From NCBI GenBank assembly GCA_001780275.1, contig MFGB01000022.1, positions 1,249 through 65,248 of the forward strand: DNA of 64,000 nucleotides, written 5' to 3'. The notes under the pieces are model-generated. The model made no database searches and was not told the origin of the DNA. It worked only from the letters and a program-made list of their open reading frames with translations. This document shows, in pieces, positions 54,021-54,206 of this stretch. Origin of the DNA: Candidatus Falkowbacteria bacterium RIFOXYA2_FULL_47_19 (GTDB lineage: Bacteria > Patescibacteriota > Patescibacteriia > Patescibacteriales > UBA12075). Numbering within the stretch: position 1 is the stretch's first letter; each line of letters opens with the position of its first letter. The translations under genes and the position numbers were made by a program.

Positions 54021-54206
54021 TGGCGGAGAGGGAGGGATTTGCCCGGCATACGCCGGGCGCGGGGCGAATGCCCCGCGAACCTTGGCGGAGAGACAGGGAT
54101 TTGCCCGGCATACGCCGGGCGCGGGGCGAATGCCCCGCGAACCTTGGCGGAGAGACAGGGATTTGCCCGGCATACGCCGGGCGCGGGGCGAATGCCCCGC
54201 GAACCT
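54021..54206 (-). repeat. Three tandem 62-bp units: 36-nt twin GC hairpin plus a copy of the tRNA-Ser 3' end
   Basis: Units start at 54021, 54083 and 54145. In tRNA sense each reads AGGTTC-GCGGGGCATTCGCCCCGC-GCCCGGCGTATGCCGGGC-AAATCCCTGTCTCTCCGCCA. The distal unit has CCCTCCCTCTCC. Confidence 0.95.

Follow-up and report, generated by a model that had tools for sequence, protein, structure and literature searches.

A 62-bp tandem array behind a tRNA-Ser gene of Candidatus Falkowbacteria as the right edge of a hairpin-capped insertion with a GIY-YIG nuclease gene

Directly behind the intact tRNA-Ser(CGA) gene in a 64-kb stretch of DNA from Candidatus Falkowbacteria (Patescibacteria), which we refer to as the window, lies a tandem array of 62-bp units that was picked out in an earlier reading of the letters (the original prediction). 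We find that these units are the right-hand junction, in repeated form, of a 565-bp insertion (54041-54605), and that this insertion splits a second, resident tRNA-Ser(CGA) gene, here called A, between C56 and A57 of its T-loop. The insertion carries a stand-alone GIY-YIG nuclease gene together with the intact tRNA, here called B. With moderate confidence, we read it as a selfish cassette of GIY-YIG gene and hairpins that split the tRNA gene in the T-loop and brought a replacement tRNA along, the array being its recombined right edge. Array and cassette are read on the minus strand, coordinates are collected in Table 1, a slash within a motif marks the point of insertion, and handles such as L010 denote individual loci or contigs.

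The array is reported by TRF as a tandem repeat at 54020-54227 with a period of 62, 3.4 copies, 98% matches and a score of 402. In tRNA sense, the unit reads AGGTTC + GCGGGGCATTCGCCCCGC + GCCCGGCGTATGCCGGGC + AAATCCCTGTCTCTCCGCCA, that is, a stub, 36 nt of GC-rich DNA and the tRNA end from A57 to CCA, as the original prediction had it. The 36-mer has three exact occurrences in the window against 0 expected and does fold as a twin hairpin, namely as two hairpins with 7-bp stems and 4-nt loops (DNA −20.6 kcal/mol, z = −4.6). Of the earlier description of three units, each ending in an exact copy of the tRNA 3' end, the repeat stands and the exact copies do not all stand: the 3' end of tRNA B is copied exactly only in the two proximal units, while the distal unit (54021-54082) reads CCCTCCCTCTCC where the proximal units read CCCTGTCTCTCC, a difference of two bases, and the count of three is insecure. 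The array was correctly placed between the tRNA and a bidirectional terminator, which is also found after the locus of a sister species, and tRNA-Ser is indeed the only one of the three tRNAs in the window that encodes CCA, since tRNA-Arg and tRNA-His do not. A role of the double hairpins themselves as intrinsic terminators does not fit what follows them, AAATCC or GAATCC instead of a T-run; the sole terminator call is the one at 53988-54018. An Rfam search over 53800-55000 (E <= 10) returned only tRNA and noise, with no group I intron and no known small RNA. Two features had escaped the earlier reading, a fourth, diverged double hairpin upstream of the GIY-YIG gene and the insertion as a whole, with its gene and functional tRNA, which assigns the distal unit to the split gene.

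The 5' part of gene A begins 7 nt past the stop codon of a queuosine-precursor transporter gene. It was missed by ARAGORN at default settings and was detected once the hairpin had been excised and the threshold lowered. When 54606-54696, with both hairpin inserts removed, is joined to 54021-54040, ARAGORN finds a complete tRNA-Ser(cga) cloverleaf with an acceptor stem of 7/7 pairs (one G-U) and a T stem of 5/5, and swapping the 3' parts between A and B leads to mismatches at 7:66 and 49:65. Because the two odd bases of the distal unit restore the pairing of A, this unit is the true 3' end of gene A and not a product of decay. The insertion reads, in order, a 36-bp double hairpin, a 20-nt leader, the GIY-YIG gene, tRNA B, and A-GGTTC with a further 36-bp double hairpin, directly adjoined by the displaced 3' part of A. 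The left double hairpin, ~270 bp upstream of tRNA B on the same strand, is again flanked by GGTTC and GAATCC, and in its first hairpin the stem is a flipped version of that in the array copies, which amounts to a set of compensatory changes. The two internal stubs (CAAGG-TTC on the right, GAAT-CCTTG on the left) together make a perfect T-arm, CAAGG-TTCGAAT-CCTTG, and it looks as if the T-arms of donor and resident had been opened at one point and cross-joined. Positions 57-76 of B and the displaced positions 57-76 of A form direct repeats, identical at 18 of 20 positions, and these 20-bp repeats flank the 42 bp of stub plus hairpin.

The intact tRNA B probably came with the insertion: in its 5' half it is similar to the tRNA of L143, a more distant relative, and not to that of the sister species. 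It has A57 (TTCAAAT), which breaks the TTCGAA palindrome, and the cassette-free loci L142 and L143 have G57 (TTCGAAT). The idea that the intact tRNA is protected by A57 was not retained: it holds here and in L037 and L042, and most tRNAs beside the gene keep TTCGAAT. Fragment A has, in addition, a single-hairpin insert in its D-loop that is absent from the tRNA of the sister species. Such D-loop inserts occur in dead tRNA copies of the window, L005, L010 and L028, where a GC hairpin plus CAAG stands between AGT and GGTC or GGTT, with stems that vary between genomes and a layout that stays the same.

Table 1. Features of the tRNA-Ser(CGA) locus, in positions of the window.
Feature	Position	Strand	Remarks
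Bidirectional intrinsic terminator	53988..54018	.	13-bp stem then T-run; common to the convergent Lon-like gene and the tRNA unit
62-bp tandem array	54021..54206	-	3 units in this assembly, 1 to at least 2 in others; directly 3' of tRNA-Ser(CGA)
Displaced 3' part of gene A, positions 57-76, AAATCCCTCCCTCTCCGCCA	54021..54040	-	pairs with 54606-54696
36-bp GC-rich double hairpin, copy 1	54041..54076	-	identical copies at 54103-54138 and 54165-54200
AGGTTC stub (T-arm 5' half)	54077..54082	-	again at 54139-54144 and 54201-54206
Exact copy of tRNA B positions 57-76	54083..54102	-	second copy at 54145-54164
Intact tRNA-Ser(CGA), B	54207..54296	-	ARAGORN; Rfam tRNA 55.9 bits; inside the insertion
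82-aa stand-alone GIY-YIG nuclease gene (UPF0213 / bacterial Slx1-like)	54301..54549	-	Pfam PF01541, E = 1.6e-16
Leader GAATCCTTGCGCGTCTCAAT	54550..54569	-	T-arm 3' half (stub, GAATCC), then run-up to ATG
Left double hairpin (GCCCCGCAGCCGCGGGGC GCCCGGCGGCTGCCGGGA)	54570..54605	-	between C56 and R57 of split gene A
5' part of tRNA-Ser(CGA) A (positions 1-56)	54606..54696	-	ARAGORN after hairpin excision
20-nt single-hairpin D-loop insert in fragment A (TCCGGCATTCGCCGGACAAG)	54660..54679	-	fold z = −4.6

Relatives at the same locus show the site without the cassette. In a sister Falkowbacteria species (GCA_043801965.1), whose transporter and Lon-like protease are 94% and 89% identical to those of the window, gene A is intact at the same place, with a body identical to the window fragment at 54/54 nt, and the 3' end piece at 54021-54040 matches the 3' end of this intact tRNA. 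The GIY-YIG gene and tRNA B are absent from the sister species' locus (L142). A clean empty site is seen in a third relative (L143, transporter 86% identical), where the transporter gene is directly followed by a bare tRNA-Ser(CGA). The GIY-YIG gene is thus polymorphic for presence at one locus, as L142 and L143 have the tRNA without the gene. The sister species does have an array (L060 6530-6698, L142 3379-3460), built from a different tandem unit of ~73 nt that consists of a spacer, a nested hairpin, CCCCGCATATCCCGA(A/C)GCCTCGGGATTGTGCGGGG, and an A-type tRNA 3' end from C61; the L060 and L142 contigs both end within it. Its junction hairpin lies between the spacer and the 3' strand of the T-stem, without TTC/GAA, and a 5' partial tRNA copy with another hairpin lies upstream of the intact tRNA. 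Synteny was lost, and the loci thus uninformative, in L061 (Lon 63% identical) and L144-147 (transporter 82% identical).

The copy number of the array varies between assemblies. The ENA MEGAHIT contig L054, from the same population, has an array of one unit, and this one-unit form is supported by the direct joining of the distal-variant unit to the tRNA. There is an N-gap inside the array in the NCBI scaffold (L001/L055), the JGI contig L056 stops within the second unit, and four further contigs of the same population stop in the first unit reached (contig ends in the array: L002, L056-L059). Some genomes must have two units or more, since three assemblies (window, L055, L056) contain unit-to-unit junctions, in which a B-type 3' copy is followed by a hairpin. 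Short-read assemblies of several projects break or have N-gaps at arrays of hairpins and tRNA fragments (L015, L018, L044, L001/L055, L002, L056-L060, L142), and because they break exactly there, such arrays are likely to be under-represented in metagenome-assembled genomes (MAGs).

The open reading frame (ORF) carried by the insertion starts 20 nt after the left hairpin and stops 4 nt before tRNA B. Its GIY-YIG domain spans residues 1-71 of 82, with no separate DNA-binding domain, and the residues of the catalytic motif, Y5, Y16, G18, R25/R26, H30 and E62, are invariant among 11 homologues. The closest solved structures are PDB 1zg2 and 1ywl, UPF0213 proteins of 96-107 aa that have been placed in the bacterial Slx-1 cluster (Dunin-Horkawicz et al., PMC1564403).

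Is the double hairpin tied to T-loops in general? A context-free double-hairpin pattern was scanned over one genome per species for 185,579 species, and yielded 51 loci. At 22 of these, all in GC-rich genomes, the stems are imperfect and there is no tRNA context, and we treated them as chance matches. The remaining 29, in low- and mid-GC genomes, have perfect stems flanked by GGTTC ... GAATCC or the reverse complement, and a tRNA gene is present in the stretch fetched at 27 of them, mostly within ~100 nt and co-oriented with the split T-loop. This bears out a preference for T-loop junctions, for which the original prediction had proposed a survey. The tRNAs concerned are Ser, Thr, Pro, Leu, Lys, Ala, Gln, Val, Arg and Tyr, and the loci come mostly from Patescibacteria MAGs, with some that carry the unconfirmed labels Gammaproteobacteria, Bdellovibrionales, Fimivivens and Methanoregula. 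In the window, the 36-mer is found at the tRNA locus only, with four double-hairpin copies in 64 kb, and the hairpin pattern had 0 matches in viral_contigs.

The flank consensus over 37 sites is GGGTTC/GAATCC. The point of insertion can be placed only to within 1-2 nt, and a 2-bp duplication might account for the shared CG. The 36-mer is found in both orientations relative to tRNA sense, which fits an event at the level of DNA, located at the centre of the TTCGAA palindrome. Among 27 distinct 36-mers, a set pre-selected for pairing, 8 of the 14 stem pairs are changed on both sides and there is a single G-U pair; the property that is conserved is Watson-Crick self-complementarity. Variant hairpins with covarying stems are found in L062-L068 and L081, and several sites of an individual genome can have a hairpin 'flavour' of their own (L066). 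Inserts also occur at other ..TC/GAA.. sites of tRNA copies, in the D-loop (GGTC/GAA, L079) and in the anticodon loop (CTC/GAAA, L069). In L069 the double hairpin lies in the anticodon loop of two tandem 5' copies of tRNA-Ser(CGA) (1447-1485, 1783-1821), and two tandem 3'-end copies with a GC-rich joint stand behind the intact tRNA, ~190-390 nt past the GIY-YIG stop (1746). A rule by which the long tRNA part always lies beside the CCCGG hairpin was dropped, as the orientation is ~2:1 and independent of the layout type.

Around the hairpins, the same few layouts recur. Where the hairpin is downstream of the tRNA, its right flank copies the tRNA 3' part from R57 for 18-54 nt and extends 0-30 nt beyond the tRNA end, and its left flank matches for only 5-15 nt (GGTTC stub). 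Where it is upstream, the left flank is a copy of the tRNA from ~+1 to C56 (24-90 nt), and on the right the match is limited to 5-12 nt (GARTCC stub). Both tRNA halves are found around one intact tRNA in the window, L010 and L012, and all layouts could be derived from the composite of the window by recombination between duplicated tRNA parts. At least nine other tRNA species have the same layout behind them, with spacers that are unrelated, and there are other tandem arrays in L018 (tRNA-Thr, N-gap), in L069 and in the sister species. Deletion of the hairpin leaves no tRNA across the junction at 37 of 39 sites, so the hairpin is never a simple intron-like insert in a working gene. A tRNA intron of the group I or bulge-helix-bulge kind was rejected on this result, together with the lack of a group I match in Rfam and the self-contained nature of the hairpins. 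Likewise, a split-tRNA or intron-like RNA function was rejected, as the partner strand is missing, fragment A has a D-loop insert and substitutions, and both orientations occur.

The nuclease gene was linked to these junctions from two sides. A close homologue is present at 11 of the 29 hairpin loci (phmmer E = 1e-25 to 1e-36), where it starts 16-36 nt past the GAATCC stub and ends just before the intact tRNA; in related loci, GAATCC stubs lie 14-47 nt upstream of the ATG. From the protein side, we sampled the best 80 of at least 520 metagenomic GIY-YIG relatives. In this sample, 47 of 80 have a co-oriented tRNA close by, and 23/79 have a perfect, GC-rich hairpin in the 80 nt before the ATG, compared with 4/67 in a control interval. 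In all of the eight closest relatives (8/8; 62-67% identity), the gene follows a hairpin-split copy of the downstream tRNA, and an intact tRNA lies 3-24 nt past its stop. In L081, an intact tRNA lies 2 nt from the gene on one side, and on the other the gene is followed downstream by a stub with double hairpin and 3' copy. The link of the gene is thus with GC hairpins at tRNA-copy junctions generally, and with the 36-mer in the closest subfamily.

Other arrangements of small GIY-YIG genes were seen along the way. L068 has a second, different gene of this kind (MHYVYSLKCKDGYYIGCTENL...) ~120-400 nt past tRNA-Ser, with palindromes of the GGTTCGCCGAAGCGAACC type before it. Distant GIY-YIG ORFs in L071, L078, L083, L085 and L092 are tightly bracketed by an inverted repeat (..CACCCCGTTAGATA.. 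ORF ..TATCTAACGGGGTG..), so that the ORF lies in the loop of a long hairpin, and some of them appear inside or beside other reading frames. In L070, L072, L075 and L077 the region of ~150 nt between the upstream tRNA and the GIY-YIG gene holds a long inverted repeat that begins right at the tRNA end (CTGATATTCGC ... GAATATCAGCC).

Several observations weigh against a selfish GIY-YIG/hairpin cassette. The strict 36-mer occurs at 1 of 80 more distant GIY-YIG relatives, many of which have other hairpins or none, and 18 of the 29 hairpin loci, four of them in one MAG (L033, L041, L050, L053), have no GIY-YIG gene in the ~8 kb fetched; as most sites have no such gene nearby, the hairpin could be moved otherwise. 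The intact tRNAs beside the gene mostly retain an unprotected GGTTCGAATCC, which is awkward if this motif is the cleavage target. The 82-aa protein, a predicted nuclease with no assigned cleavage target, lacks the DNA-binding domain of true homing endonucleases. The complementarity of stub to stub is clear only in this window and was not seen in L010 or L012, the covariation comes from a set chosen for at least 6/7 pairs per stem, and short-read MAGs cannot settle copy numbers. The gene-less sites, including the four of one MAG, also speak for another explanation, which we consider doubtful: the 36-bp hairpin would be a miniature element, similar to repetitive extragenic palindromes (REP/REPIN), palindrome-associated transposable elements (PATE) or miniature inverted-repeat transposable elements (MITE), that is moved in trans by an unlinked transposase, e.g. 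Y1 HUH, inserts at GGTTC/GAATCC without target duplication and survives only in dead tRNA copies. The GIY-YIG gene would then be another frequent tenant of tRNA loci, and the array a local amplification. Such an element would agree with the precise insertion, which has no duplication or an ambiguous one of at most 2 bp, with the genome-specific flavour of the hairpins in L066, and with the two orientations at a palindromic DNA target. It does not, however, predict that one flank is nearly always a stub of 5-6 nt, as simple insertion into an existing tRNA fragment would not produce this; the junction hairpin of the sister species, which has no TTC/GAA, indicates that there the hairpins mark junctions and not a target site; the distance to the GIY-YIG start codon recurs within narrow limits; and no transposase was found beside any hairpin site. 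The original prediction had likewise offered amplification of a T-loop-targeting mini-element, of which the T-loop specificity of the hairpin and the amplification of the units hold true, but the array forms the right-hand end of an insertion that is 565 bp long.

Three further explanations are less probable still. Direct repeats that run from the T-arm to the 3' end are reportedly the classic footprint of tRNA-integrating elements, so the partial tRNA copies might be attL/attR scars of lost integrase islands that recombine in the T-loop, with the hairpins as secondary insulators or processing signals, and the two internal stubs do rebuild one T-arm in the manner of an attP core. We find this improbable, since there is no integrase gene at the locus or beside the hairpin sites read by eye, the inserts measure only 42-565 bp, both junctions have a hairpin at the very point of crossover, and islands that carry a 3' end do not make duplications of the 5' part from ~+1; of the earlier suggestion of scars left by an element recombining in the T-loop, what survives is that the units are scars of an insertion junction in the T-loop. 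Very improbable, in our view, is a functional RNA, in which the array would supply mimics of the tRNA 3' end, as a decoy or sponge for CCA-directed enzymes or toxins, or processing or stabilising signals. The position of the array between tRNA and terminator on the same strand, the CCA of the 3'-end copies and the compensatory changes that keep the hairpins paired would suit it. The copy number, however, ranges from 1 to 3; hairpin, spacer and junction differ in the sister species; the spacers at other loci are unrelated; the 36-mer occurs in both orientations; its loops do not belong to the stable tetraloop classes of RNA and it has hardly any G-U pairs; without an acceptor 5' strand, the units can form no minihelix; the distal copy is explained as the end of the split gene; and there is no match to an Rfam family, so this part of the original prediction is not upheld. 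Least credible of all is that a single unit was multiplied into a tandem repeat by an error of assembly. One independent assembly does have exactly one unit and every other breaks or gaps here, but the unit-to-unit junctions in three assemblies oppose it, and unit, split gene and hairpin family are real either way, though the exact count is less secure.

Returning to the selfish cassette, we infer its enzymology as follows. Double hairpin and GIY-YIG gene would together make up a selfish DNA system whose breaks in tRNA genes, made at the DNA level, fall on the T-loop palindrome TTC/GAA and occasionally on other ..TC/GAA.. sites in the D-loop or anticodon loop; the GIY-YIG protein would presumably make these breaks. 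The survivors would be cells that keep or gain an intact tRNA copy, and if only these survive, the hairpin would be seen, as it is, inside a partial tRNA copy beside an intact tRNA. Eukaryotic Slx1 is a structure-specific nuclease, and as the protein belongs to the Slx1-like branch, the hairpins may be its handle or its substrate: a nuclease of this type without a DNA-binding domain might recognise extruded hairpins as a structure. As for the array, unequal crossing-over, slippage or out-of-register break repair between the 20-bp repeats could add or remove 62-bp steps, and exchange between direct repeats fits the one-unit and multi-unit versions across the assemblies. A wider claim, which is possible and which we put forward only tentatively, is that of an undescribed two-part mobile system, in which a hairpin-handled nuclease breaks TTCGAA and forces duplication or replacement of tRNAs across Patescibacteria and some other bacteria.

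Mobile DNA is well known to land in tRNA genes; here the target is their most conserved 11 bp, the gene itself is broken in two, and a minimal nuclease is accompanied by a replacement tRNA. Should nuclease and hairpin indeed be linked, this would be a compact new route for selfish DNA into essential RNA genes and could drive the turnover of tRNA genes and the horizontal replacement of tRNAs in the reduced genomes of the Candidate Phyla Radiation (CPR). The UPF0213/Slx1-like family of stand-alone GIY-YIG proteins is widespread, and these loci offer a concrete candidate substrate for it. On the practical side, short-read assemblies break here, with N-gaps or contig ends inside arrays at five independent loci, and annotation pipelines will miss or miscall the tRNA fragments.

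Besides the transporter, the neighbours of the locus are genes for a pseudouridine synthase, Wzy and a Lon-like protease. Elsewhere in the window there are heptamer tandem repeats (AATTTCC, TCGTAAT/TTCGTAA, ATTCGAA, CAATATC) at 3119-3153, 9366-9741, 10635-11068, 58673-58697 and 60636-60663, and AT-rich short repeats akin to them flank tRNAs in some hairpin loci (L033, L041, L053). Tandem repeats of 117, 219 and 111 bp with 73-82% identity at 35424-36239 and 37296-37672 are presumably repeated protein domains of a large gene.

The original prediction knew of no described system that looks like this, and our literature searches agree: they found no description of this bacterial arrangement, only analogues in SegB and in mitochondria, and a 2026 survey of tRNA introns in Patescibacteria makes no mention of T-loop inserts or hairpins. 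A hairpin at a T-loop break seems to be undescribed. The nearest known enzyme is SegB of phage T4, a free-standing GIY-YIG homing endonuclease in a tRNA gene cluster, which recognises T-loop DNA by the motif GGTTCRANTCC and makes its cut at the tRNA gene's 3' end, often after CCAR (PMC2330249). Both genes encode a GIY-YIG domain and lie between tRNA genes, and SegB spreads with the flanking tRNA genes; its cut after CCAR agrees with the CCA/A junction of the array units, and its recognition core and cut are as far apart as the T-loop centre and the tRNA end, the two limits of the duplicated interval. SegB, however, is a phage gene and not part of a cellular genome, it has 221 aa including a DNA-binding part, whereas the window protein is a UPF0213/Slx1-like catalytic domain of 82 aa only, and neither tRNA-gene splitting, partial tRNA copies nor a link to GC-rich hairpins has been reported for it.

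Mitochondria of yeast, Allomyces and Neurospora have GC clusters, double-hairpin elements and, flanking tRNA genes, GC-rich palindromes (PMC2800124). Like the hairpins described here, these are short, GC-rich (double) hairpins in AT-rich genomes, with conserved stems and variable loops, single or in tandem, some of them beside tRNA genes, and they are thought to be mobile with preferred target sites. The resemblance is in kind only and we claim no homology: they are organellar, their sequence is unrelated, and no single C56/R57 position, partial tRNA duplications or dedicated GIY-YIG gene is known for them. Allomyces atp6, with its foreign 3' part, is reportedly an essential gene invaded by a mobile endonuclease ORF, the displaced original fragment staying behind as a pseudogene. 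There too a selfish ORF carries the replacement for the displaced part; the target, however, is protein-coding, whereas here it is a tRNA, the replacement is a whole tRNA and both junctions are capped by hairpins. Elements that integrate into tRNA genes share the direct repeats from T-arm to 3' end (18/20 here, and likewise at other loci) and the crossover in the T-loop, and differ in that the inserts here are tens to hundreds of bp, with filler DNA at the crossover and duplications of the 5' part; no tyrosine or serine recombinase gene was found between or beside the junctions of the window.

REP sequences, the bacterial interspersed mosaic elements (BIME) and REPINs with their REP-associated tyrosine transposase (RAYT), and the PATEs of IS200/IS605 are likewise GC-rich imperfect palindromes, often paired, with a short specific target and no duplication. 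The 36-mer, in contrast, has no GTAG-type motif, its flanks are GGTTC and GAATCC and it is not dispersed in intergenic DNA, being limited to the tRNA locus in the window. With regard to an IS200/IS605 PATE, insertion is precise, after (G)GTTC, and without clear duplication, but both orientations occur; no TnpA/Y1 was seen beside the sites, and no genome-wide search for a RAYT gene was made. In summary, none of these systems has all four features together: an address fixed at C56/R57, partial tRNA copies capped by hairpins, a GIY-YIG gene of minimal size and a replacement tRNA carried along. The broader class to which such a combination would belong, selfish endonuclease or palindromic-element DNA at tRNA genes, is already known.

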